64,000 bases of DNA, from the IMG/VR virus record IMGVR_UViG_3300027675_000005, positions 5,236-69,235 of that record, one strand, 5' to 3'. This DNA is from a virus. Below the pieces are notes generated by a model. The model searched no databases. It saw only the letters and a program-made list of their open reading frames with translations, and was not told the origin of the DNA. A program made the position numbers and the translations under genes. The first letter of the stretch is position 1, and every line of letters starts with the position of its first letter. Below are positions 20,980 through 55,557 of this stretch, in pieces.

Positions 20980-22299
20980 TCAATTTACGAGCTTGAGCGG
21001 GGGAGCCAATTTGTCAGGCTCGGGTTCAATTTCAGGTTCTTCGGGCTCAACACCACCAGTCGGGATCGGTGTGGATGTGGTGGAACCAATCAGTGAAGGT
21101 AGCGTGTTGTCCTCCTCGAAGCCGAGGATCTCACGCTTCTCGTTGGTGGTAAGGAAGTTGACGTGGCTGAGGGTTTGTCCGAGCTTGGCGCGTCCTTCCC
21201 AGAGCGCAGGAATAGCATCATAGTCGAAGGAAATCTTAGCACCATACGGACAAAGACACGCACTGAGACCAGCTGCCATCGGAGATATATAATTGGGAAC
21301 CACCGTATCTTGCCATAGGGCGAGTCTGGACTGTTCATAATTGTTCGAATACTTTGCAGAGTCCGCATTGCTCAATCCTAGGAGAGCTACAGGAACGCCG
21401 AACACGCCTGCGATAATGCGCGTCATGTCGTCGAGAGGAATCTTACTGTGAATGTCACCCATCTTATTGTCAAGGGTATGGACTTCAATCTTCGTGTTGT
21501 AAAGGAATAGGACAGTACCAGAACCATCTTCCCCTGGCCCCGAAGATTCGAGATGCTCCTTAAGAGCCTCGACCTGCTGCTTAGTTAGAGTCTTGTCAGA
21601 CGTAACCACATACTTGATATTGGGATGGCCACTCGCAGTGTCATACGCTCGCTGCATCAGACAAGTAATAATTGCAAGCGGAATTGCAAGGGATTCGATA
21701 GCCGCCGGAGCTTTGTTATATTCAATCAGACCGGTAATGGATGGAAAGGAGATCTCCGCAGCGTAGCTCTCACCGGGGAGAGCTTTACGCTTCGACGGGA
21801 ACCTCTGCTCCTGTGGTGTATTCTCACCATAGATATAGGTGTCGATAGTACCGCGGGAGTTCGGAACCCCCTTCATGTACTTGGTAGCAAGAGGATAGAT
21901 CCCGTTCGGGAGCCCCTTTGTTCCAATGCCGACCTTGAAATGAACGCGAGAGTAAAGCATCAGATTCAGGGTTAGCCAGTAACGTAGATTCTCTGGAGTG
22001 AAATTGTCGTTCGGGGATTTGAGAAGAGAGTTGATCGCTTTGATCTCGCCTGGGTTGGCGCGATCGGAGGCGGAGACGTTTGGATCAGCTTCGCAGAACC
22101 ACGGAACAGCCTGGGCGCTAGATGCAACCAAATGAGTCACACGATATAGTTGAGGAATGCGCCGCTGCGCTTCCTCCGCCGTCATAACCGCCGTAGCCGA
22201 TATAAGCCGGATCGGTTGATTCCCGATCGTAAAGATCGGGCTCATAGGCTCGTCAGCGACGTCCCGTTTCGGTGGCTTTTTAATTAACCAGTCCCACAT
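20980..22299 (-). CDS. Portal protein (HK97 family)
   Basis: LLKSPND, IAGVFGVPVALLG, YSNNYEQ, LTTNEKREILGF motifs. Confidence 0.93.
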   Translation of the reverse strand: MWDWLIKKPPKRDVADEPMSPIFTIGNQPIRLISATAVMTAEEAQRRIPQLYRVTHLVASSAQAVPWFCEADPNVSASDRANPGEIKAINSLLKSPNDNFTPENLRYWLTLNLMLYSRVHFKVGIGTKGLPNGIYPLATKYMKGVPNSRGTIDTYIYGENTPQEQRFPSKRKALPGESYAAEISFPSITGLIEYNKAPAAIESLAIPLAIITCLMQRAYDTASGHPNIKYVVTSDKTLTKQQVEALKEHLESSGPGEDGSGTVLFLYNTKIEVHTLDNKMGDIHSKIPLDDMTRIIAGVFGVPVALLGLSNADSAKYSNNYEQSRLALWQDTVVPNYISPMAAGLSACLCPYGAKISFDYDAIPALWEGRAKLGQTLSHVNFLTTNEKREILGFEEDNTLPSLIGSTTSTPIPTGGVEPEEPEIEPEPDKLAPPLKLVN

Positions 22300-22500: not shown

Positions 22501-23751
22501 CTACCACAGCTTCACAACTCCACCAAACGGATCGTCTCCGGAATCGGGCTGGGTGATACAGTCTTCTAAAGCGTAACGAGAAGCATCCCAACCGTGGTTA
22601 TTCGCATCTACGGGAACCCGACCAGGAAGAACCTTACCACTGAGCTTGTCAGTCATGAACGAGTACAGACGTGCTTCATCCCGCATCATTTCACATTGCG
22701 GATGAATGATAATCTTATACCCGGACATAAAGTTAATGCCCTCTTTGACGGAACCAGGACCTTTCTTAGCCCCAATGATATTTGGGAAGCCTCTAGCATT
22801 AAGGAATTCAATTGTTCCCGGTTGACTGGAATCTGCCTTAACTAAATCGTCAGGGGAATCAAGTACAGAAAGGAGCAACGTAGGGAGCTGATCCATAGGA
22901 ACACGACCGCTAGCCTCCGCTGCGATATAGATCGTCTGAATGGCCTCGATCAGATAAATCTTAACCACAAAGGAGGGATCGGAGCCAAAGCCAAAGTCCA
23001 TCCCATATCGGGGCGGACAATCCACTGGTACCAGTGTGGTGCCAGTAGTGCAGTTCGGGAACACCTTGGAGTCGGCCGCTGTGTCATAACCACCAAGCCA
23101 CACATGCTTATAACGCTCGAAATTGCCCTTCTTCAGTGTTTCCCGTTCTTCAGGGAGTTCCGTCTGGTAGAAGTAGGGGTTATCGGAGCAGTCGACGAAG
23201 GTGACCAAGGAACGTGGAGGCGGGCCTTCTTTGGTGTTTCGAAAGTAGTAATCGACGGGGTCGTCGGGCTTCTCTGGGTTCCAAGTCCAGATGAAGAAGG
23301 AACCAGGGCTGCGCACTGTTGGCAGCAGAACTTCCATCGACTTGGCACGGATCGTCCTCGCTTCCTCTACCCAAACGATATCTGCGCCTTCCAAGGAACG
23401 AATCGAATCAATGTTGCGCTCGAGGCCTACGAAGCTGATCTCGGTCTTAGTCTCGACATGCGTAATGTATTGATCTGTTACCCGGTAATGTCCAGTAAAA
23501 CCAAGGGAGTCAATCCGTTTCTCAATTAGTGCTTTGGAGCTGTCCCGAATGGAGTTCTGGAACTGACGGGCGCAGACAATCTTCTTCTTTGCCTGTCCGC
23601 CAACTATAGTAAGGAAAGAAGCAACGGACCAGGACTTAGCAGAGCCTCGGCCACCAAATAGAGCGTGATGGCGAGCAGGAGTCCACAGATTTTGTACATA
23701 CTTTTCACCGAGGTGAAGATCTAGCTGGGCCTTTCTGGCTTGGGCAGACAT
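22501..23751 (-). CDS. terL: Terminase large subunit (PBSX family)
   Basis: GGRGSAKS Walker A, WVEEA Walker B, DFGF and NHGWDASRYA nuclease motifs. Confidence 0.95.
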   Translation of the reverse strand: MSAQARKAQLDLHLGEKYVQNLWTPARHHALFGGRGSAKSWSVASFLTIVGGQAKKKIVCARQFQNSIRDSSKALIEKRIDSLGFTGHYRVTDQYITHVETKTEISFVGLERNIDSIRSLEGADIVWVEEARTIRAKSMEVLLPTVRSPGSFFIWTWNPEKPDDPVDYYFRNTKEGPPPRSLVTFVDCSDNPYFYQTELPEERETLKKGNFERYKHVWLGGYDTAADSKVFPNCTTGTTLVPVDCPPRYGMDFGFGSDPSFVVKIYLIEAIQTIYIAAEASGRVPMDQLPTLLLSVLDSPDDLVKADSSQPGTIEFLNARGFPNIIGAKKGPGSVKEGINFMSGYKIIIHPQCEMMRDEARLYSFMTDKLSGKVLPGRVPVDANNHGWDASRYALEDCITQPDSGDDPFGGVVKLW

Positions 23752-23797
23752 CAACTAACCATCCAGAAGATACTCACAATGATAAAAACCCACAACG

Positions 23798-24362: not shown

Positions 24363-24842
24363 TCAAGCAACGTCGGACTTGAAAGGATCTACGGGAGTGG
24401 GGTTGTTGAGGAGATCCTCAATAGTCTGGACAGACTCGGGAGTGGTATCTGGAGCTGTATCGGAAGCGGAGGGAACGTGATCGATCGTAGGGCCTTTAAA
24501 GCCGGAGGCGGGCATATACCGATCGGGAGGAACGGAAACGATGTTCACATGCTCGATCACGTTGATGGTTGATTTGGAATCGATCTGCAGCGGGAGAACC
24601 TTAGAGATCACCTGGAGGTACTGCTTCGGGTAGGTGCTCGCTGCGAACTTCAAGTAACCGAGCAGGCCGTCCCTTCCGTTCCCATCCATACCAATAGCTG
24701 CCGCTGCGTCTAGGATAAGCGTTCGCAGGTCAGCGTGTTGATCAACCGTCAGGGTATTCTGGAGAGCAACCTTCTGCAATTCAGCAGTCAGGTTGACAGG
24801 CTGAAGATTCACTTGGACATGGGGTGTGCTCGGGTTGTTCAT
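24363..24842 (-). CDS. terS: Terminase small subunit (putative)
   Basis: GLLGYLKFAA..YPKQYLQVISKVLPLQI motif of DUF5681-like TerS; first gene of the packaging operon. Confidence 0.7.
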   Translation of the reverse strand: MNNPSTPHVQVNLQPVNLTAELQKVALQNTLTVDQHADLRTLILDAAAAIGMDGNGRDGLLGYLKFAASTYPKQYLQVISKVLPLQIDSKSTINVIEHVNIVSVPPDRYMPASGFKGPTIDHVPSASDTAPDTTPESVQTIEDLLNNPTPVDPFKSDVA

Positions 24843-24862
24843 GTTGCTGATATATAGTCAAT

Positions 24863-24893
24863 AAAAAAGATCGCTCCCTTTCGAGAGCGATCT
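24863..24893 (-). terminator. Intrinsic terminator just upstream of terS
   Basis: AGATCGCTC-loop-GAGCGATCT followed by a T run on the minus strand. Confidence 0.8.
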
Positions 24894-25179
24894 GAGGTGG
24901 CAGTCATCGTCAGTAGGCAGGCTAGAAAGGGGATGCGGGGACGTCCAACGGAGTAGAAGTCCGTCCCCGCTCTGGTTAGGCGGAAGCAGTGGCCGGAGCC
25001 TAGCTACACCACCCCAGTTACTAAAGTCGGAGCGAGTTTGGTGCCCACGACTTTAACTTCGCTTCCGAGTGGGAGCATCGGGGGAATTAAGATGCCCAGA
25101 CCCGAAAGCTAAAGCGGTGTGTGAACAAATCCACTACTCACCGCAAGTCAAACTGAACCGCAGACGCAACGCTGACTAA
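24863..25179 (-). ncRNA. Putative structured ncRNA / late-operon leader
   Basis: ORF-free, with stems 24935-43/24962-70, 24981-87/25061-67, 25022-29/25048-55 and 25114-19/25139-44, ending in the terminator. Confidence 0.5.
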
Positions 25180-25689
25180 CTACAGCAAGCGTAACACAGA
25201 AGCATTTACGATGCAAGTATTTATTTGCCATCCTAAATGTTCTTTGATTTTCAATGTGATATCGCCATTTGTCTTAATATTGAGTATCGTTCCTGTACAG
25301 CCACATAGCAAGCCGTCAGTTACCTCAACGTGAGCGTTAATGGTCAGTCCATCGGGAGGGATGGCAAGAAGGGCATGGGTGGTGGACATAATTGTAATCT
25401 CGGATAGTGTACAGGTGGCGTATGGGAGTGGGGGTCGTTTCATAATATGCAGCTTATGAGAGAAGCGGGGGAAAGAGAGTTGGATAGACTGGATGGGGTG
25501 GGGGTAGAACAGGAATGAGGGCAGTATTGGGATAGTAATCGTTTCGCGTTGGCGGGAGGGGCCACGGCGGACTTGGATAGTTGTGGTTGGACAGAGGAGG
25601 TCGGGGTTCAGGAGGGATAGGTTCAAGGTGTCGCGTGGGTGACAGCGTAGGATGAGGAAGCGGGGATCATTTAGCAAGGAGCCCTCCAT
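25180..25689 (-). CDS. NusG/RfaH-like transcription antiterminator
   Basis: PILPSFLF (NGN PLFPGYLF-like) and VEVTDGLLCGCTGTI KOW motif; upstream of the late operon. Confidence 0.75.
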   Translation of the reverse strand: MEGSLLNDPRFLILRCHPRDTLNLSLLNPDLLCPTTTIQVRRGPSRQRETITIPILPSFLFYPHPIQSIQLSFPRFSHKLHIMKRPPLPYATCTLSEITIMSTTHALLAIPPDGLTINAHVEVTDGLLCGCTGTILNIKTNGDITLKIKEHLGWQINTCIVNASVLRLL

Positions 25690-25694
25690 TGGAT

Positions 25695-25766
25695 GAGAGA
25701 ATGGTTTTTCGCAAAACGCTCGATCTGGTTTTTGGGGGTGAAGTTTCGAGGAGAGAATGGTTTTTT
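25695..25766. repeat. Direct repeat GAGAGAATGGTTTTT x2
   Basis: Copies at ~25695 and ~25751. Confidence 0.8.
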
Positions 25767-25915
25767 GCGAAGGCTGAGATTTTAGATGACCGATCAGTTT
25801 TTTCGTAAACCTCGATCACGATACGCCACCGCCGACCCCCGCCGATCTCGATTTATCCACCGCCCCGGGGGGTCCCTCTGCATAGCTGCTATGCAAACAA
25901 ACATAGCACATCGCA

Positions 25916-25944
25916 TTGCATTTTCGACTAGCTTACCCCATATT
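25916..25944 (+). promoter_or_regulatory. Putative sigma70 promoter of the first early gene
   Basis: TTGCAT ... CATATT; palindrome TGCATAGC-T-GCTATGCA at 25879-25895 upstream. Confidence 0.45.
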
Positions 25945-26020
25945 GCATTTGTTGGTGCAAACGCACTAACCGCGTCAGCAGCCGCTGCCGCGTTTCGCTA
26001 CACAACAGAAAGTAGTCGTT

Positions 26021-26383
26021 ATGTCAAAAAAGTCACGTAAGTCGCAGTCAGTTGCCGTCGCTGCCCCCGTCATCGTTGCTGATGTCGCCGAGCTGCCGCC
26101 GGAAGTCGCAGTCGCTGAAGTCGCTGCTGAAGTCGCAGCCCCCGAAGCCGCTGCCCCCGAAGCCGCTGCTGTCGCAGTTGTCGCGCCAGTTGTCAAAACC
26201 AAAAAGTACCCCCGCGAAGGGGGCAAGTGTTGGCTTGTCTGGCACGAGTGTGACAACTTGCTCGCCGCCGGCACTCACCCCACCGTTGCTCACTTGCGCG
26301 CAACCGCAGTCGAGCGCAACTGGAACGTGTCAAACGCCAGCCAGGAATTTTACGCTTGGCGCAAGTATCACGGTCGCAAGTAA
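26021..26383 (+). CDS. Early protein, Ala/Glu-rich N-terminus plus conserved C-terminal domain
   Basis: C-terminal domain resembles that of 46353-46922; followed by a terminator. Confidence 0.7.
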   Translation: MSKKSRKSQSVAVAAPVIVADVAELPPEVAVAEVAAEVAAPEAAAPEAAAVAVVAPVVKTKKYPREGGKCWLVWHECDNLLAAGTHPTVAHLRATAVERNWNVSNASQEFYAWRKYHGRK

Positions 26384-26400
26384 GCGACACGTCAAAATCG

Positions 26401-26434
26401 GGGGACACGCGCGTCGCGTGTCCCCTACTTTTTT
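26401..26434 (+). terminator. Intrinsic terminator
   Basis: GGGGACACGCG-loop-CGCGTGTCCCC then a T tract. Confidence 0.8.
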
Positions 26435-26972: not shown

Positions 26973-27000
26973 GGGGCCCCTCGAAAGAGGGGCCCTTTTT
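26973..27000 (+). terminator. Intrinsic terminator
   Basis: GGGCCCC-CTC GAAA GAG-GGGCCC then TTTTT. Confidence 0.85.
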
Positions 27001-29634: not shown

Positions 29635-29690
29635 TGCAAGCCCTTGCCCTGGGTCACTCCAGGGCAAGAACGTGCATCCCGCACGACAAC
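29632..29690 (+). repeat. Structured intergenic element, copy A
   Basis: Covarying homolog at 30710-30773. Confidence 0.75.
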
Positions 29691-29702
29691 GGAGTAACTA
29701 AA

Positions 29703-46990: not shown

Positions 46991-47710
46991 ATGAACGAAC
47001 AAGCAATCGAGAAGTCGGTCAACCATTCTGAAGGGTTGCTCGACGTCCACAGTATCTTCTACACCATCCAAGGCGAGGGACCCTTCAGTGGATTCCCCGC
47101 CGTTTTTATTCGGCTCGCGGGCTGCAATCTCCAATGCCCGTGGTGTGATACCGAATACACACAAGGGCGCCGCTTTGCGCATCCCGAAGTCGTTGCGGAC
47201 TACGTTAGCTCGCTGAGCCTACCCGGAGGCCTCATAGTTATAACGGGCGGGGAACCGTTCAGGCAGAATCTAACTGCGCTACTTGAGCATCTGGACGATC
47301 GCAAACATCTTGTTCAGATCGAAACCAACGGCACCCTTCCACCAAGCGAATTTAAACACTATTCAAAATACCCGCGAATGGATCATTTCCACGGCGTCTA
47401 TATTGTCTGCAGTCCAAAAACAGGACGTGTTAATCAGGCGATCATAAATAACGCATGTTGTTTCAAATACGTTCTCGATGCGGATAGTATGAATCCGGAA
47501 GACGGACTTCCGATTCGTGCCCTCGGCCACACTGCTAATCCCCAACTTGCTCGACCACCAGATGGTTGGGCTGAACCAATCTATCTCCAGCCTATGGATA
47601 CAAAAGACCCCGCGCATAATATTCGGAACATCCAAGCTGTAACTCAGTCTTGCATGAAACACGGGTATAGGCTACAGTTACAAATTCATAAGTACATCGG
47701 AGTGGAGTAA
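46991..47710 (+). CDS. queE: 7-carboxy-7-deazaguanine synthase (radical SAM)
   Basis: FYTIQGEG, CNLQCPWCDT, ITGGEP, IETNG, QIHK. Confidence 0.95.
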   Translation: MNEQAIEKSVNHSEGLLDVHSIFYTIQGEGPFSGFPAVFIRLAGCNLQCPWCDTEYTQGRRFAHPEVVADYVSSLSLPGGLIVITGGEPFRQNLTALLEHLDDRKHLVQIETNGTLPPSEFKHYSKYPRMDHFHGVYIVCSPKTGRVNQAIINNACCFKYVLDADSMNPEDGLPIRALGHTANPQLARPPDGWAEPIYLQPMDTKDPAHNIRNIQAVTQSCMKHGYRLQLQIHKYIGVE

Positions 47711-49095
47711 TGTGCGCAATCATGGGGGCCCTCATCTGGAGGGCGACCACCCACCATCTCATCGCGGCTAATCAAATCCTTACTGATATCGGAAATGCTA
47801 GTTTCGCTCGGGGTCGTGATGGATGGGGGTTTCATACTCAGGAGAGCAATGGACCCAACCACGAATACAAAACAGCCGTAAGATCCATAAGTCTAAAAAA
47901 GAATCTACAATTCTTTAGTGTGACTAACTCACGCGCGGCTGTAAATCTGATCGGTAATTTCCGTGCTGAGCCCACGACGGAGTTTGTGGTCAAGAAAACA
48001 GCAAACGATCAGCAACCCTACTCACTTAATAAATGGAACATTGTTCACAATGGAACTATTGCGAACGATAAAGTATTGCGAACAGGAGAATACCCCACCA
48101 CAATTGATAGTGCTGCAATTGTTGAGCAACTTGCCAAAGTTACTGATCTACCAGATCGAATACAAGCAGAATCAGCTTTTCGAATTGTTATTTCTAAACT
48201 TAAAGGAAGCTACGCTATCCTTGCAACACATGATGACTTTCCAGATCTGATGTTTGCTGCCTGCAATTATAGACCTATCTGGTTCACTAGACAAGAACGA
48301 GGGATCTTCTTTGCAAGCTCAAAGGATTATTTTCCAAAAGATTTTGTTTCCGAAATGCTTCAACCTTATTCCTGTTGGGTTTTTGGACCTGACCAGATTA
48401 CTAGACTCGACGCTGAATCCGATTACGGCACGAGAGCTCTTATCGTATGTAGTGGTGGCATGGACAGCGTTGTCGCTGCTACTAAAATGAAAGATGATGG
48501 ATATAAGATAGAGCTAGTTCATTTTGAATACGGTTCGCGAGCTGAAGGTCCTGAAATAATAGCGGTCAAGAATGTAGCGGAATTTCTTGACGTACCGTTA
48601 CACTTTATACCAATGAACATCTACGATCCCAAAGATTCCCCATTACTTCAAGCAGATAGTAAAATTGCAGGGGGCGAAGCTGGAGCTGAATTTGCACACG
48701 AATGGGTCCCGGCGCGTAATCTTGTGATGTTATCACTCGCAACTGCGTTTGCAGAAGCTAGAGGGATTAGTATAATCGTACTTGGTAACAATCTAGAGGA
48801 AGCAGGTGCTTACCCAGACAACGAACCTGAGTTCATTAATCGTTTTAATGATATGCTTCCATTTGCAGTCGGAGATGGAAAACGAGTTAAAGTTGTCATG
48901 CCTGTTGGTAACTATATGAAACACGAAATCGTTGCTATAGGGCACGAGGTCGGCGCTCCACTTCACCTCACATGGAGTTGCTATCGTGCGGGTCCGATCC
49001 ACTGTGGTACTTGTGGACCATGTTACATGCGTAGAACTGCATTCGAGATTAATAAGCTGCCCGAAGTTATCCAATACACAAATGGAGGAGAATAA
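47710..49095 (+). CDS. gat-queC: Glutamine amidotransferase-QueC fusion (preQ0/archaeosine synthesis)
   Basis: N-terminal MC (Ntn Cys), RG.DG.G, HNGTI; SGGMDS, VPARN, SCY...CGTCGPC. Confidence 0.92.
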   Translation: MCAIMGALIWRATTHHLIAANQILTDIGNASFARGRDGWGFHTQESNGPNHEYKTAVRSISLKKNLQFFSVTNSRAAVNLIGNFRAEPTTEFVVKKTANDQQPYSLNKWNIVHNGTIANDKVLRTGEYPTTIDSAAIVEQLAKVTDLPDRIQAESAFRIVISKLKGSYAILATHDDFPDLMFAACNYRPIWFTRQERGIFFASSKDYFPKDFVSEMLQPYSCWVFGPDQITRLDAESDYGTRALIVCSGGMDSVVAATKMKDDGYKIELVHFEYGSRAEGPEIIAVKNVAEFLDVPLHFIPMNIYDPKDSPLLQADSKIAGGEAGAEFAHEWVPARNLVMLSLATAFAEARGISIIVLGNNLEEAGAYPDNEPEFINRFNDMLPFAVGDGKRVKVVMPVGNYMKHEIVAIGHEVGAPLHLTWSCYRAGPIHCGTCGPCYMRRTAFEINKLPEVIQYTNGGE

Positions 49096-49096
49096 G

Positions 49097-49543
49097 ATGA
49101 CCTATATCTCAACAAAGACATGGGGTCACGACATTGGGCTCTCCGCTTGCTTCCGGCAATGGAAAGCACAAAGTCATTGCAAATATCTTCACGGCTACGC
49201 TCTTTGTATTCACATTGAATTTGAATCCAAAGAATTGGATGAACGCAACTGGGTAGTTGATTTTGGTTCTCTAAAAGGTTTCAAAGGTTGGCTTGAAAAT
49301 ACCTTTGATCATAAGATGTTAGTAGCTGAAGACGACCCAGACCGAACAGCCTTATGCCATCTGGCAAAATTACACATCGCCAATGTAGTATTGGTACCCG
49401 ATACAGGATGTGAAGCATTTGCTAAGATGATTTATGAATATGGAAAGATCTGGTTAAAAGATAACGGCTACGCTCCACGAGTTGAAGTTCGATCTGTCGA
49501 AGTGAAAGAACACGGTGCTAACTCAGCAATCTATATGGAGTAG
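49097..49543 (+). CDS. queD: 6-carboxy-5,6,7,8-tetrahydropterin synthase
   Basis: HCKYLHGY, VVDFG, FDH motifs. Confidence 0.92.
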   Translation: MTYISTKTWGHDIGLSACFRQWKAQSHCKYLHGYALCIHIEFESKELDERNWVVDFGSLKGFKGWLENTFDHKMLVAEDDPDRTALCHLAKLHIANVVLVPDTGCEAFAKMIYEYGKIWLKDNGYAPRVEVRSVEVKEHGANSAIYME

Positions 49544-49545
49544 AA

Positions 49546-49875
49546 ATGAAACAACTTCGAGCACTAAATGAGATCCGTCAGAAGGAATGGGACCCAACTG
49601 ACGTAATTACTCTCGCTTACCGGGGCAATGAACTTGCTGGCGAGATTGGAGAAGCCTGTAATGTAATTAAGAAACTGGAACGCGAACGTCTTGGTATCCG
49701 GGGATCGCGAGCTACGATTGAACAACTCGCTGAAGAACTAGCAGATGCAGTAATCTGTCTCGATTTGATTGCTATGCAAGCCGGGATTGATCTAAACGCA
49801 GCAGTCATTAAGAAATTCAACGCCACTTCTGAGAAGTACGGACTCAGAACTAAATTCAACGGAGATCAGACGTGA
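49546..49875 (+). CDS. MazG-like NTP pyrophosphohydrolase
   Basis: ELAGEIGEACNVIKK...EELAD motif. Confidence 0.85.
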   Translation: MKQLRALNEIRQKEWDPTDVITLAYRGNELAGEIGEACNVIKKLERERLGIRGSRATIEQLAEELADAVICLDLIAMQAGIDLNAAVIKKFNATSEKYGLRTKFNGDQT

Positions 49876-50297
49876 AGATCTATCTTGCCGGTGCGATATG
49901 GGGAGTCGAAGATCCAGTTACGTGGCGTCGCAAACTTGCAGATCGTCTACCACAGGGGTGGGAAGCAATCGATCCAACACAGATTGAATTGTTTGTAGAG
50001 AACGAGCATGAAGAAGAAAAGGCCCGTGAAATAGTATCAGCAGACCTTAATGCGATCCAGATGAGTAATGCTTTCCTTGCTCGAATAGATCGACCCTCTT
50101 GGGGTACTGCAATGGAGATGTTCTACGCCTATAACCTACGGATCCCAGTCATTGGTTGGATTCCAAATCGAGAAGCAGTAAGTGAGTGGGGTGGGAAAAG
50201 AATAACGCCACCCTGGGTCAGAGCTCACTCCGATATCGTTACTTCGGACTTCGAAGTCGTTAAACAATTCTTGCAGAATCTACTTGTAAAAGCATAA
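49872..50297 (+). CDS. Nucleoside 2-deoxyribosyltransferase / N-glycosidase-like protein
   Basis: IYLAG...WR...DLNAI...SWGTAME...IPVI. Confidence 0.82.
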   Translation: MKIYLAGAIWGVEDPVTWRRKLADRLPQGWEAIDPTQIELFVENEHEEEKAREIVSADLNAIQMSNAFLARIDRPSWGTAMEMFYAYNLRIPVIGWIPNREAVSEWGGKRITPPWVRAHSDIVTSDFEVVKQFLQNLLVKA

Positions 50298-50312
50298 CAT
50301 CTCGCTTATAAT
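50284..50312 (+). promoter_or_regulatory. sigma70-type promoter for folE
   Basis: TTGTAA-N17-TATAAT. Confidence 0.65.
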
Positions 50313-50333
50313 TAACCACTAACGGAGTACCCC

Positions 50334-50888
50334 ATGACCGGTAATCTACGCGGCGCTTTTAAAGCCGTCCTTGAAAACATCCCTGGTGAAGACGCCAACA
50401 GGGAAGGTCTGCAAGAGACGCCGGAGCGTGTGGCTCGAGCCTGGGAATTCTGGACGTCCGGCTACAACGTAGATCCAATCAGCGTACTTAAGACCTTCGT
50501 TGATGGATCTGAAGGAGTAGACGAAATGGTCGTAGTCAAAGACCTGCCGTTCTATTCTCACTGTGAACATCACCTTGCCCCATTCTTTGGTACTGTGACA
50601 ATTGGTTATCTACCATACAAACGAATCGTTGGATTAAGCAAGCTCGCTCGCTTACTCCAAATCTATTCTAGACGCCTACAAGTTCAGGAACGTCTGACCT
50701 GTCAAATGGCCGACGCTATCTTCGAGGCTCTGAAGCCTTTGGGATGTGGTGTTATTATTCGCGCCCGGCACTTATGTATGGAGTCCCGGGGAATATGTCA
50801 ACAGGGTCATTACACTGTTACTAGTGCTCTCCGAGGCATTTTTAAGACTGAGGATTCCGCTCGTTCAGAATTTCTGGGAATGAAATAA
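50334..50888 (+). CDS. folE: GTP cyclohydrolase I
   Basis: REGLQETPERV, SHCEHH, GLSKLAR, LQVQERLT, HLCMESRG. Confidence 0.97.
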   Translation: MTGNLRGAFKAVLENIPGEDANREGLQETPERVARAWEFWTSGYNVDPISVLKTFVDGSEGVDEMVVVKDLPFYSHCEHHLAPFFGTVTIGYLPYKRIVGLSKLARLLQIYSRRLQVQERLTCQMADAIFEALKPLGCGVIIRARHLCMESRGICQQGHYTVTSALRGIFKTEDSARSEFLGMK

Positions 50889-51008
50889 TGGCAATTAAAC
50901 AGATTGTTTTTACTGAAGACGGATGGTGGATATGGGTAGTGGGCCGGGATGGCACTTTTCATATCGGACCCTATCGTTGGCGCTTACTAGCAGTGATCAG
51001 GAGTTGGC

Positions 51009-51233
51009 GTGTCTAAACGTTCATCCTATGCTGTCTTTGTTGATGGCGAATTGATCGGAAATCTAATCTGGCAAAGTTGGAGATTAGTATTACATAAGCA
51101 TGACGGTACGTCGATTCGATATCACCGTGATGTCGGAGTTAAACGAGCCCGTGGTAACATCGCAAGGAATTACAGAGTCAGAGATGACCAAGTATCACTA
51201 ACACTCTGGAAACTTGAATTGGCAGCAGAATAA
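51009..51233 (+). CDS. Hypothetical protein
   Basis: AGGAG SD. Confidence 0.45.
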   Translation: MSKRSSYAVFVDGELIGNLIWQSWRLVLHKHDGTSIRYHRDVGVKRARGNIARNYRVRDDQVSLTLWKLELAAE

Positions 51234-51415
51234 TGAAAGATAAATACACCGCACGACATTGTGATATGGTCATCCCATCTGATATAGATGATTTAATTCA
51301 TCGTCGAATAAAACCATTCTTAGATAGCGTTGGGATGAATAAAAGTCTAGAGCATCTACTAGCAGAAGCATATCTGCAAGGAATGAAAGATGCCGTACAG
51401 ACTATGGAAAAATAG
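51233..51415 (+). CDS. Hypothetical protein
   Basis: Operon packing; AYLQGMKDA. Confidence 0.5.
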   Translation: MKDKYTARHCDMVIPSDIDDLIHRRIKPFLDSVGMNKSLEHLLAEAYLQGMKDAVQTMEK

Positions 51416-52342
51416 ATGCAAATCTATCTAGCTGCGATCTATACAAACGGATATCGTGCCGGGGGTAACTCCGGCCGATATCGTAACTTGACTGACAATG
51501 AAAAGTTATTGGTAGACGCAGTCCCACATATCCTAGAATCATATCATTATGTTCAGAAACAGAAGTTCGCTGATGCCATGCGTGAGGACCACAGCAAGGT
51601 CTTTCTTGACTCCGGAGCGTTCTCCGCTCATACGCTTAAGGTAGAACTCTCAGTTGCCGAGTACTGCGAGTATATCAAACGCAACACAGATATCATTCGT
51701 GTCGAAGATGGAATCCCATTAGTATCCGTACTCGACGGCATCGGTGATCCGCTTCAGACGTATCGCAACCAATGCGAAATGGAAGCCCGTGGGGTTCGCC
51801 CACTTCCTTGCTTTCACTCAGGCGAAGATGAACGCTATCTTGAATACTACGTTAAAAATTATGAATACATTACTCTAGGTGGTATGGTCGGAGCTTCCTC
51901 TGCGCAGCTTATGAAATGGCTCGATCGAATTTGGGATAGATATCTAGTTGACGGCAGCGGTCGCCCGCGCCTCAAGGTACATGGGTTTGGTATCACCTCT
52001 ATTCCAATTATGGAAGCCTATCCTTGGTATAGTTGCGACTCATCTTCTTGGGTGCAGACCGCAGCGTTCGGTGGTATTCAGACACCACAATGGGGTCCGA
52101 TCAACGTCTCCGAGAAGAGTCCGCAACGCCACGATGCAAACCAACACGCCACAACTCTGTCTGCGATCGAGCAGGATGTTATCTTTAAGCATCTTGAGGA
52201 TAAGGGTTTCACATACGAACGGTTGTCCACCGTCTACGAGTCTCGAGCTGCATATAACTTGTGGGCTTATGGTATAATCAATGCTATAGTTAACATCAGG
52301 AATCGTGGCATCTACAAAGGCAGAGTGAGGGAACTATTCTGA
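51416..52342 (+). CDS. dpdA: DpdA-like 7-deazaguanine DNA transglycosylase (TGT fold)
   Basis: FLDSGAFS, PCFH, LGGMV, HGFG, DSSSW motifs; next to the que genes. Confidence 0.8.
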   Translation: MQIYLAAIYTNGYRAGGNSGRYRNLTDNEKLLVDAVPHILESYHYVQKQKFADAMREDHSKVFLDSGAFSAHTLKVELSVAEYCEYIKRNTDIIRVEDGIPLVSVLDGIGDPLQTYRNQCEMEARGVRPLPCFHSGEDERYLEYYVKNYEYITLGGMVGASSAQLMKWLDRIWDRYLVDGSGRPRLKVHGFGITSIPIMEAYPWYSCDSSSWVQTAAFGGIQTPQWGPINVSEKSPQRHDANQHATTLSAIEQDVIFKHLEDKGFTYERLSTVYESRAAYNLWAYGIINAIVNIRNRGIYKGRVRELF

Positions 52343-53508: not shown

Positions 53509-55557
53509 ATGCCGCGTAATCCTGTTGAAGGAATCTTCTGGGACGACACAATTATTCCCAAGGAACCAAAGGTCCAACGGGAGAAACGTACTCCGCCTGA
53601 GCAAACTTGGCTCGATCATTTGCCCGGGCTTGAAGAAGCCCGGGCGTTTCCTGTTGAATTCTTAACGTACGATGACCTGCTGCGTATCAGCGCAGACGTC
53701 GAAGAACTTATAATCGATGTGGAAGTATTCGAAAATTATTTCCTCGCAGTGTTCACGCATGTGGCGTCCGGTAAAGTCTTCTACCTAGATTCTAAAACTC
53801 CACAGCTAACCGAGGGCTTGCGTTGGATCCTTGAGAATTGTCTTACCGTGGGATTTAATTCTATCTCTTACGATCTAACAATCTGTTATCTGATATGTGA
53901 TGGTGTAGAAGAAGATACCGTAAAAAATGCTTCAGATGCCATAATCAAACTTAACATAAATCCATCTGATATTCTTAGAGAACACCGAGTTAAGAAGTTC
54001 GGTGTTAACCATATTGATCTAATTGAAGTTGCTCCTTTATTTGCAAGCCTGAAAACGTATGCCGGAAGACTCCACGCAAAGAAGATGCAAGATCTTCCAT
54101 TCCATCCCGATACCGTTCTAAGCGAAGATCAGATCAGCATTGTCCGTTGGTATTGTGTTAACGATACTCTCAACACCCAACTGCTTCGTGAGTGCTTGAA
54201 CGAACAGATTGCATTGCGATATGAACTCAGTAACGAATTCAATATCGATCTACGTTCGAAATCCGATGCGCAGATTGCTGAAGCTGTCATTAACAGGGAG
54301 CTCAAAAGGCTCACTGGGCGTTTCCCAAGTAAACCTATGGTTCCGATTGGCACAGTTTATCAATACCGCATTCCCTATTACCTTAACTTTCAATCTGACT
54401 TAATGAAGTACGCTCTGAATGTAGTTGCCAATGCCCAGTTTATTGTCGATCACACTGGTTCGATCGCAATGCCGAAAGAGATCAAAGAACTTCCGATCGA
54501 AATGAACGGAGCAGTGTACCGCATGGGAATCGGCGGACTACACAGTTCGGAACAGACAGCAGCCCATGTGGCGGACGATGACTTTATATTACTTGACAAA
54601 GACGTAGTATCTTATTATCCTTTCATTATTCTGAATCTAGAATTAGCACCACAACATCTTGGAGATCCGTTCCTTACTGTCTATCGATCCATTGTTAATA
54701 AGCGCGTCGATGCAAAGCGGGCTGGAAACAAAGCTGCCGCGGATTCGCTCAAGATCGTAGTCAACGGAACGTTCGGTAAACTGGGTAACATGCACTCCAT
54801 TATCTACTCGCCCGACTTGCTTTTTCAAGTTACGCTTACGGGCCAACTAACCCTTCTACTTCTAATTGAACGTCTCGAGCTGGCAGGCATTCGTGTGGTC
54901 AGCGCCAATACGGATGGTATTGTAATCAAATGTCCACGCGCACTTAAAGAACGCATGGAAGGGATTATTAAATCATGGGAATTTGATACTCGCTTTGAGA
55001 CCGAGGGGTCTGAATTCCAAGCTCTCTATTCCAGGGATGTCAATAACTATATTGCGATTAAGAAAGATGGAAAGATCAAATCCAAAGGGGCTTATGCGAA
55101 ACCCGAATACGCTGCCGAGCGACTGCATAAGAATCCAACAGCAACTATCTGTCTAGATGCAGTACTTGAATATCTTATTAGAGCTGTTCCATTGGAAACC
55201 ACAATACGGTCTTGTGCTGACATCGCGAAGTTTGTTAGCGTCCGCACTGTACGGGGAGGCGCTGCACGGGTTCGGCCTTCAGGAAACGAATATATAGGTC
55301 GATCTATACGATGGTATTATGCAACCAATACTGAAGGGGAATTAGTCTATGTTATGTCCGGTAATAAAGTACCGAGGTCTGATGGAGCAAAGGAGCTAAT
55401 GGTGCTTCCAGATTCTCTGCCCACCGACATAGATTACGAGTGGTACATCAAGGAGGCACACAGAATATTAATTGATATAGGAGCGGAAACTGAAACCGCT
55501 AGCGGGGCCCCCACAGCCGCTGATCAGCAGGGGGCTCCCCATGTACAGGCCAGCTAG
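53509..55557 (+). CDS. DNA polymerase, family-B-like with 3'-5' exonuclease
   Basis: DVE exo I, GFNSISYD exo II, YCVND exo III; DVVSYYP, KIVVNGTFGK, NTDG. Confidence 0.88.
   Translation: MPRNPVEGIFWDDTIIPKEPKVQREKRTPPEQTWLDHLPGLEEARAFPVEFLTYDDLLRISADVEELIIDVEVFENYFLAVFTHVASGKVFYLDSKTPQLTEGLRWILENCLTVGFNSISYDLTICYLICDGVEEDTVKNASDAIIKLNINPSDILREHRVKKFGVNHIDLIEVAPLFASLKTYAGRLHAKKMQDLPFHPDTVLSEDQISIVRWYCVNDTLNTQLLRECLNEQIALRYELSNEFNIDLRSKSDAQIAEAVINRELKRLTGRFPSKPMVPIGTVYQYRIPYYLNFQSDLMKYALNVVANAQFIVDHTGSIAMPKEIKELPIEMNGAVYRMGIGGLHSSEQTAAHVADDDFILLDKDVVSYYPFIILNLELAPQHLGDPFLTVYRSIVNKRVDAKRAGNKAAADSLKIVVNGTFGKLGNMHSIIYSPDLLFQVTLTGQLTLLLLIERLELAGIRVVSANTDGIVIKCPRALKERMEGIIKSWEFDTRFETEGSEFQALYSRDVNNYIAIKKDGKIKSKGAYAKPEYAAERLHKNPTATICLDAVLEYLIRAVPLETTIRSCADIAKFVSVRTVRGGAARVRPSGNEYIGRSIRWYYATNTEGELVYVMSGNKVPRSDGAKELMVLPDSLPTDIDYEWYIKEAHRILIDIGAETETASGAPTAADQQGAPHVQAS
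55496..55517. repeat. Left arm of a long-range 22-bp inverted repeat
   Basis: Reverse complement matches 60417-60438 at 21/22 positions. Confidence 0.8.

Follow-up and report, generated by a model that had tools for sequence, protein, structure and literature searches.

A conserved structured leader RNA beside a divergent NusG-like gene, and its probable role in gating the late genes of an uncultivated virus

The window studied here is a stretch of 64 kb out of a 69,235-bp uncultivated virus record (IMGVR_UViG_3300027675_000005). Within it, a 337-nucleotide (nt) gap (24843-25179) separates two minus-strand open reading frames (ORFs 25689..25180 and 24842..24363), which are a NusG-like gene and the first gene of the packaging and late block. 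The gap encodes a conserved, uncatalogued structured RNA that is paired with a phage NusG paralogue. This RNA is probably the cis-acting leader of an antitermination switch, of the kind represented by LoaP and RfaH, that gates the late genes of the phage. The coordinates of all features are collected in Table 1.

There is no credible ORF in the gap, which is touched only by ORFs of 22-40 amino acids (aa). An earlier note made from the letters of the window (hereafter the sequence-only reading) was thus right to describe the region before 'terS' as ORF-free. The minus-strand fold has an energy of -132.7 kcal/mol (z -5.18; not equalled by any of 100 shuffles), and the plus-strand fold a z of -1.75. 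Where at least four stems and a minus-strand terminator had been proposed, we find five hairpins (P1 to P5) and an intrinsic terminator with an 11-bp stem. G.U pairs, fold z-scores and the U-tract of the terminator agree that the RNA is read from the minus strand. The RNA does not match described small RNA families: no hit to Rfam 15 families (AbcR, alpha-r14/15, 6S, riboswitches) reached the gathering score in the window or in the loci of nine relatives. The lone match at E<=10, NsiR4 (12.5 bits), lies on the wrong strand, over the terminator. No tRNA or tmRNA was found in the leader region.

Related contigs were collected from IMG/VR and JGI metagenomes by means of TerL, the 159-aa protein that opens the packaging block, and the NusG-like protein. 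In every locus with both genes, tblastn shows them on the same strand, the NusG-like gene preceding the 159-aa gene by 168-422 nt. Sixteen distinct leaders, those of the window and L016 included, carry the relevant region; leaders L053 and L058, which are cut off ahead of the P5 region, were dropped. All 15 homologous leaders tested have a sense z of -3.0 to -8.1, and the sense value is more negative than the antisense value in 13 of them. By blastn, the leader aligns for the most part with that of the closest relative alone (73% over 230 nt); in the others the alignment is limited to the last 26-29 nt. The 5' core, consisting of P1, P2 and the word GUURARGUCRUG, is still recognizable across the relatives. 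A covariance model of the P1-P2 core (R1) matches the window and the genomes G001, G002 and G003 exactly once each, every time in the gap between the NusG-like and 159-aa genes; in total it gives 19 matches in 372,255 bases. In the alignment fitted to R1, 96.8% of 250 cells pair, compared with 34-48% in controls with the partner slid by 1-3 columns. Seven of the 21 pairs change on both sides, and none of 500 shuffles reached the covariation score.

The 11 pairs of P1 are formed in 97-100% of cells, with compensatory changes (A-U/G-C and A-U/C-G) and a G.U pair at 18:27 in 12 of 13 rows. Five of the 10 pairs of P2 change on both sides (94.4% of cells paired). The apical loop of P1 varies among the relatives (UUUG, CCCC(U), GCAA, UCAG, CUCG). 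A search of 17 leader sequences, among them the truncated ones, located the 12-nt word in 13; the regular expression fails in L015, L019, L053 and L058, and L019 has a divergent form of the word. P3 corresponds in relatives to a long-range helix around variable inserts, with arms GAAGUC/GACUUC and AGGUC/GACCU (read by eye). P1, P2 and the word are the parts common to all relatives except L015, and P5 is not among them. Because these parts are kept and P5 is not, cis antitermination is the more likely primary role of the leader.

The upstream gene encodes a 169-aa protein, and its description as NusG-like is supported from several sides. The protein matches PHROG 6386, 'transcription antiterminator' (E 1.4e-5); no direct sequence match was obtained in Pfam or the PDB. 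A profile built from 17 relatives matches the Spt5/NusG KOW domain (E 0.012-1.2), and several relatives give weak KOW matches. The AF2 model has a predicted local distance difference test score (pLDDT) of 63.8 overall and is good only at residues 1-104, with about 70-89 in the N-terminal domain; the C-terminal part lies below 55 and has a predicted helix at 125-140. In Foldseek the model is matched best by 8f5g 'NusG-RNA complex' (LoaP-type), RfaH (2oug and 5ond) and NusG, at E ~8e-3. A query with the single protein found no relatives in viral contigs, whereas an alignment of relatives (A2) did. The family profile collected 58 representatives at E<=1e-3; among the 48 of these remote relatives that were scanned, 22 match Pfam NusG (PF02357, NGN) at E<=0.01 and 10 exceed the curated cut-off. 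The NGN domain is recognized through these matches together with the fold match of the N-terminal part. Several lines, each of them weak (PHROG, KOW profile, Foldseek, PF02357 in relatives), agree in placing the protein in the NusG family, as a very divergent paralogue. Among 50,697 records of cultured phages, tblastn found no relative of the protein (spurious matches only, E 0.04-0.5).

At the other end, each of the 15 distinct leaders with its 3' end present terminates in a hairpin plus U-run, and the stem sequences are unrelated. Between terminator and start codon lies a conserved box (UGACUAUAUAUCAG); 4-7 nt separate its end from the start codon, and the gene that begins there has no Shine-Dalgarno sequence. 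U-run and box are 89.7-96.2% identical over 26-29 nt (blastn; the six matching loci represent the leaders of three distinct relatives), and apart from this stretch the three leaders are unalignable. By our reading, the box resembles an extended -10 element (TGnCTATAT). Judging by its letters, it could be an extended -10 promoter that gives a near-leaderless mRNA, or a translation start element. As a repeated late promoter, TGACTATATATCAG was rejected: it has one exact copy in the window, and 7 sites with at most 3 mismatches compare with 4.5 expected (22 of 100 shuffles reach 7). The same applies to GACTATAT as a repeated promoter word, with 3 copies against 1.3 expected, the two others lying inside genes.

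We propose the following course for the switch. Transcription from the promoter region 25690-25785 would cross the NusG-like gene (25689-25180) into the leader, and the polymerase would stop at the strong intrinsic terminator (24893-24860), directly before the packaging and structural genes. Once it has accumulated, the phage NusG paralogue would board RNA polymerase at P1, P2 and the word GUUAAAGUCGUG, and the modified polymerase would pass the terminator into the late operon of roughly 25 kb. P1 is the candidate loading site, the 12-nt word is a candidate pause or ops-like element, and P3, P4 and P5 would be exchangeable accessory hairpins. The action of the protein on the leader, its binding place and the terminator as the regulated step are what we infer here. 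When the 69 window proteins were compared with PHROGs (E<=1e-5), no phage RNA polymerase, sigma factor or Q-type protein was found, and the seven flanking proteins (E<=0.001) likewise contained none; we count this in favour of a switch that uses the NusG paralogue.

A number of points weigh against this proposal. The single homology scores of the protein are weak (E 1e-5 to 1e-2), and its AF2 model is of moderate confidence for residues 1-104 and of low confidence at the C-terminus. The R1 model misses the core of L015 at E<=1, although L015 keeps the gene order, the terminator and P5; its P1 region is much enlarged. L019 scores 21 bits only. The apical loop of P1 is not of the UNCG type used by LoaP, and no ops word was verified. 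The chief uncertainty is the TATA-like box after the terminator, which could be an independent late promoter. If so, the leader would be a 3' untranslated region (UTR) of the NusG-like mRNA and the terminator would merely insulate the late genes.

Several known systems offer a comparison. LoaP of Bacillus velezensis (dfn/mln) depends on an RNA hairpin of the dfn leader, in which it overrides an intrinsic terminator (PMC12691694). The phage locus is alike in that a specialized NusG paralogue adjoins its proposed target operon, as it does in every locus with both genes, and in that an intrinsic terminator comes after a leader hairpin. Of all fold matches of the phage protein, that to the LoaP-type structure 8f5g is the best. 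The differences are that the paralogue is phage-encoded with the late structural genes as the proposed target, that it is linked to Pfam NusG only through intermediate relatives, and that the leader has about 170-420 nt and 3-6 hairpins, compared with the one small UNCG hairpin of LoaP. No conserved UNCG is present in the apical loops of P1. UpxY combines pause hairpins with a DNA word (opsX; PMC11685472). In both RfaH and UpxY, a paralogue is recruited to paused polymerase by a short leader word, aided in UpxY by nascent hairpins; the phage counterpart would be the 12-nt word, which comes after two conserved hairpins. Structures of RfaH also rank high among the fold matches of the phage protein. 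RfaH is reported to be weak against intrinsic terminators (PMC7819879), whereas the proposed barrier in the phage is a strong one of this type. Neither JUMPstart nor, beyond NsiR4, any other Rfam family was matched even at E<=10, the ops consensus not having been compared letter by letter. Since neither a conserved UNCG hairpin nor an ops word was found, we liken the phage system to LoaP and RfaH and do not count it as a member of either group.

The lambdoid arrangement of Q, pR', 6S RNA and tR' has a similar antiterminator gene, short non-coding transcript and terminator before the late genes. In the phage, however, the protein is NusG-like and not Q, and the leader is far more structured and covaries; no Q family occurs in the PHROG or Pfam results, and no promoter-proximal pause element was identified. 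The AbcR and alpha-r14/15 RNAs of Alphaproteobacteria carry C-rich or CUCC loops on several hairpins and a Rho-independent terminator. The leader shares CUCC loops on several hairpins and the terminator, but it has no Rfam match, is encoded as a phage leader, is not enriched in CUCC and has the phage's own genes as proposed targets. Outside P5, CUCC stands at 25075, 25032 and 24998. These further motifs had been pointed out by the sequence-only reading and are present, but a total of 4 against ~2.1 expected is not significant. In the window, CUCC is mostly unpaired only in P4 and P5. All three of P3, P4 and P5 display it in their apical loops in L020 and L045, and P4 and P5 do so in the window; it is absent from the L005 group. 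A host from the Rhizobiales is not supported; the nearest cultured TerL relatives belong to Synechococcus phages (53.7%) and Agrobacterium phages (41%). The locus had no blastn match in cultured phages, and neither Synechococcus phage Yong-L2-223 nor Agrobacterium phage Milano has synteny upstream of TerL.

Hairpin P5 had been read correctly, as a 9-bp stem at 24970-24935 with an exposed loop; the CUCC of this loop has an unpaired probability of 1.0. P5 occurs in five distinct variants, in which 36 of 36 stem cells pair, two of the nine pairs change on both sides and two turn into G.U. Of its 18 loop positions, 16 are invariant, and only L015 deviates (UA to G). An invariant and fully unpaired loop argues for a sequence-specific function. 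P5 is found in 7 of the 16 distinct leaders and is missing in 9. The NusG-like proteins of the lineages that bear it are only 43-67% identical. In the tree of these proteins the P5-bearing lineages are deep and paraphyletic, and those without P5 form one clade (support 94/89) in addition to L019 (L053 and L058 disregarded), a pattern consistent with an ancestral element and one or two losses. In the leaders of the P5-less clade L012, L014, L018 and L056, the place of P5 is taken by a hairpin formed between GGAGGGG and CCCCUCC(UA), the first arm being Shine-Dalgarno-like and the second anti-Shine-Dalgarno-like.

The core of the P5 loop, CUCCGUU, is complementary to AACGGAG. The window contains this motif 28 times, where 7.8 +/- 2.9 occurrences are expected; none of 100 shuffles reached 28. 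Twenty of the 28 sites are followed at 3-11 nt by the start codon of a reading frame of at least 40 codons. Without the one at 54505, which falls within the DNA polymerase ORF, the count comes to the ~19 genes that had been claimed, with the motif 5-10 nt before the start. AACGGAG is the top 7-mer 3-10 nt before ORF starts, with 18 of 29 sites so placed in G000 and 17 of 25 in G001. The exact 10-nt complement reported upstream of 29703 is also confirmed, as CAACGGAGTA (29687-29696), 8 nt before ATG, matches UACUCCGUUG of the loop; a 10-nt loop match at the same gene is common to G000 and G001. Among 103 start regions, 47 pair with the loop at -10 kcal/mol or better. Composition shuffles of the loop average 25 (0 of 300 reach 47), shuffles that keep CUCC average 31 (2% of 300 reach 47), and a generic 16S tail gives 10. 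The complementarity of loop and motif is real and exceeds chance by a modest margin.

The motif does not depend on P5. In G002, a complete genome without P5, AACGGAG is again the top ribosome-site 7-mer (10 of 19). In a comparison of three complete genomes, AAY precedes ribosome-site-placed GGAG in 24 of 81 cases in G000 and 21 of 79 in G001, both P5-bearing, and in 17 of 72 in G002; the AAY share among all GGAG is 6-8%. Matches of at least 8 nt to the complement of the loop number 32, 29 and 26 respectively, and orthologous genes retain the AAYGGAG motif without P5. As its share is alike with and without P5, the motif is a property of the lineage or host and not of P5. Conservation of the loop in relatives, which the sequence-only reading had named as a test, was observed wherever P5 is present; covariation of the loop with the ribosome-site motif was not.

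Some further properties of the loop were recorded. GGAGUAGAA (49537-49548, plus strand), which abuts the ATG of a MazG-like gene, is complementary to UUCUACUCC in the 5' half of the loop, and this match is common to the P5-bearing G001 (G001:C1 ~60323). In L059 (2250-2290) and L016 (1-40), a small hairpin just upstream of P5 displays AACGGAGUAA, an exact 9-nt complement of the P5 loop, which could possibly form a kissing pair or serve as a built-in decoy; the other P5-bearing leaders have no hairpin of this type. Autoregulation of the NusG-like gene by P5 was considered and dropped, because its start region pairs at -15.5 kcal/mol in the window only and at about -10 in other P5-bearing phages. 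A partner for the loop inside the same leader was likewise discarded, the best duplexes (-12.6 to -15.1 kcal/mol) lying within the shuffled means of -12.6 to -16.0 (standard deviation ~2). The loop 17-mer has five matches in viral collections, two in known relatives with the hairpin and three without it. In bacterial and archaeal genomes it has 17 matches, none with the hairpin, where by our own arithmetic ~70 chance matches are expected in 596 Gb. These matches carry no sign that the loop mimics a host RNA, and this idea was abandoned. No RNA sequencing runs with this sequence are listed. Six DNA runs are, one of which contains every word sampled and may be where this DNA came from.

The properties of P5 allow a different account of the leader, which we consider unlikely, although it and the cis role may exist side by side. 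Once terminated, the transcript, or a fragment cut from it, would act in trans as a small RNA whose P5 loop pairs with the AAYGGAG sites of ~20-24 genes, mostly in the plus-strand replication block, and alters their translation as the leader accumulates. A precedent is StxS, which is reported to be a prematurely terminated late leader that acts in trans as a small RNA (PMC7547250). The open loop, its constancy across divergent lineages above a covarying stem, and the depth of these lineages in the tree are consistent with such a function. So are the complementarity of CUCCGUU to the top ribosome-site 7-mer, a loop G that can pair with either C or U of AAYGGAG, the excess of pairing start regions over both kinds of shuffle, the 10-nt match that G000 and G001 share, and GGAGUAGAA before the ATG (49537), which pairs with the other half of the loop and does so in G001 too. 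However, P5 is missing from more than half of the distinct leaders, the motif is almost as frequent in G002 as in the P5-bearing genomes, and pairing with the start region of the NusG-like gene is lost in other P5-bearing phages. The bias towards early genes is weak (34 of 66 plus-strand start regions pair at -10 kcal/mol or better, compared with 13 of 37). The 5' half of the loop, GACUUCUA, is equally invariant, yet few ribosome sites are complementary to it, a sign of a different ligand. The invariant loop could also be an ancestral private anti-Shine-Dalgarno. Its CUCCGUU(GG) would form G-C or G.U pairs with AAYGGAG at some two dozen genes of the phage itself, better than a generic 16S tail does, and the antitermination leader would also switch the translation of replication genes; we regard this combination as doubtful. 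We are just as hesitant to see P5 as an accessory cis module that binds a protein or the transcription or translation machinery, with its complementarity to ribosome sites incidental. Conservation of all 18 nt of the loop, beyond the 7-nt complement, would be explained in this way, as would the direct repeat GGAC that frames the loop and the position of P5 in an insertion-prone part of the leader, beside exchangeable hairpins. No candidate protein was identified for such a site, the GUU after CUCC has a prior of ~1 in 64 by our own arithmetic, and only 2% of the CUCC-keeping shuffles reach the observed number of targets.

Two other explanations dispense with the NusG paralogue or with the RNA itself. 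A ligand-sensing riboswitch or attenuator that governs the terminator without a protein would account for the conserved 5' domain of several helices and the intrinsic terminator after it, and the 7-deazaguanine/queuosine-type genes of the phage make a metabolite signal conceivable. We hold this to be very improbable, given that no Rfam riboswitch was matched, that leader length (168 to 422 nt) and hairpin content vary widely, that no alternative pairing between core and terminator is seen, and that the NusG paralogue always adjoins. Least credible of all is an element that works at the level of DNA, such as a packaging site, an origin or protein-binding repeats. Sites of the cos or pac type often lie directly upstream of packaging genes, as the gap does, and the box at 24845-24860 is conserved as sequence. 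The stems, in contrast, are kept as pairs and not as sequence, some of their compensatory changes yield G.U pairs, which would read as C-A on the opposite strand, and the fold z is asymmetric between the strands in 13 of 15 leaders.

Phages are known to time their late genes by lambda Q, by T4 gp55/gp33 or by activators of the P2 Ogr type. To our knowledge, NusG paralogues with dedicated leaders come only from cellular and plasmid operons (RfaH, LoaP, UpxY, ActX). No phage-encoded NusG paralogue was found described in the literature searched, most subscription journals being outside its scope. If our reading is true, a phage NusG paralogue with a large covarying leader would extend the NusG-paralogue mechanism to virus development, and would add an uncatalogued RNA family as well as a compact, portable antitermination module of protein plus RNA. 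Titration of phage ribosome sites by the P5 loop, if true, would be a new viral way to coordinate early shut-off with late onset, and a private anti-Shine-Dalgarno would couple the transcriptional and translational timers in one element.

Table 1. Positions of the leader elements and adjoining genes in the window
Feature	Position	Strand	Remarks
NusG-family (NGN + KOW-like) protein, 169 aa, putative phage antiterminator	25180..25689	-	PHROG, profile and fold matches
Whole non-coding leader (or 3' UTR of NusG-like mRNA), 337 nt	24843..25179	-	Fold z and no Rfam match
P1, two-tier hairpin	25114..25144	-	6-bp outer stem, 5-bp inner stem GUGGA/UUCAC, conserved internal loop, variable apical loop
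P2, hairpin	25061..25109	-	Conserved 10-bp base, variable apical part
12-nt word GUUAAAGUCGUG (consensus GUURARGUCRUG), also 5' arm of P3	25046..25057	-	Top-conserved unpaired stretch, alignments A3 and A4
P3, hairpin	25021..25056	-	Predicted fold
P4, hairpin, apical loop UCCG, variable among relatives	24972..25017	-	Predicted fold
P5, hairpin	24935..24970	-	9-bp stem, 18-nt loop GACUUCUACUCCGUUGGA (24944-24961) holding CUCCGUU
Intrinsic terminator	24860..24893	-	11-bp stem (24893..24868), GAAA loop, then U-tract TTTTTTATT
Conserved box UGACUAUAUAUCAGCA	24845..24860	-	Between terminator and start codon
First packaging/late-block gene, 159 aa	24363..24842	-	'terS' from position only
TerL	22501-23754	-	Downstream of 159-aa gene
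Portal	20980-22299	-	Downstream of TerL

The minus strand from ~25.7 kb downwards carries the late genes for head, tail and baseplate, in the order 159-aa ORF, two small ORFs, TerL, portal, protease, capsid, tail sheath, baseplate and fibres. The sole match of the 159-aa protein in the PHROG scan is PHROG 11043, a family without assigned function. Replication genes and genes of the 7-deazaguanine type occupy the plus strand between 28 and 60 kb. Among the latter, a cluster at 46991-52342 (plus) comprises QueE-like, QueC-like/amidotransferase, GTP cyclohydrolase and queuine tRNA-ribosyltransferase-like genes, and suggests that the phage DNA may carry a 7-deazaguanine modification. A direct repeat, GCRAAAAACCATTCTCTC, occurs on the minus strand in two copies ~55 nt apart (25700-25785). 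It sits in the 96-nt divergent promoter region (25690-25785) between the NusG-like gene and the plus-strand ORF 25786-26040, and its copies are possibly operators or promoter elements of an early/late decision. Strong terminator-like hairpins are also present between the late and early blocks, at 26207-26225 (minus), 26400-26426 and 26973-26996 (both plus). These three extra hairpins indicate that several short transcription units converge between 25.7 and 28 kb.

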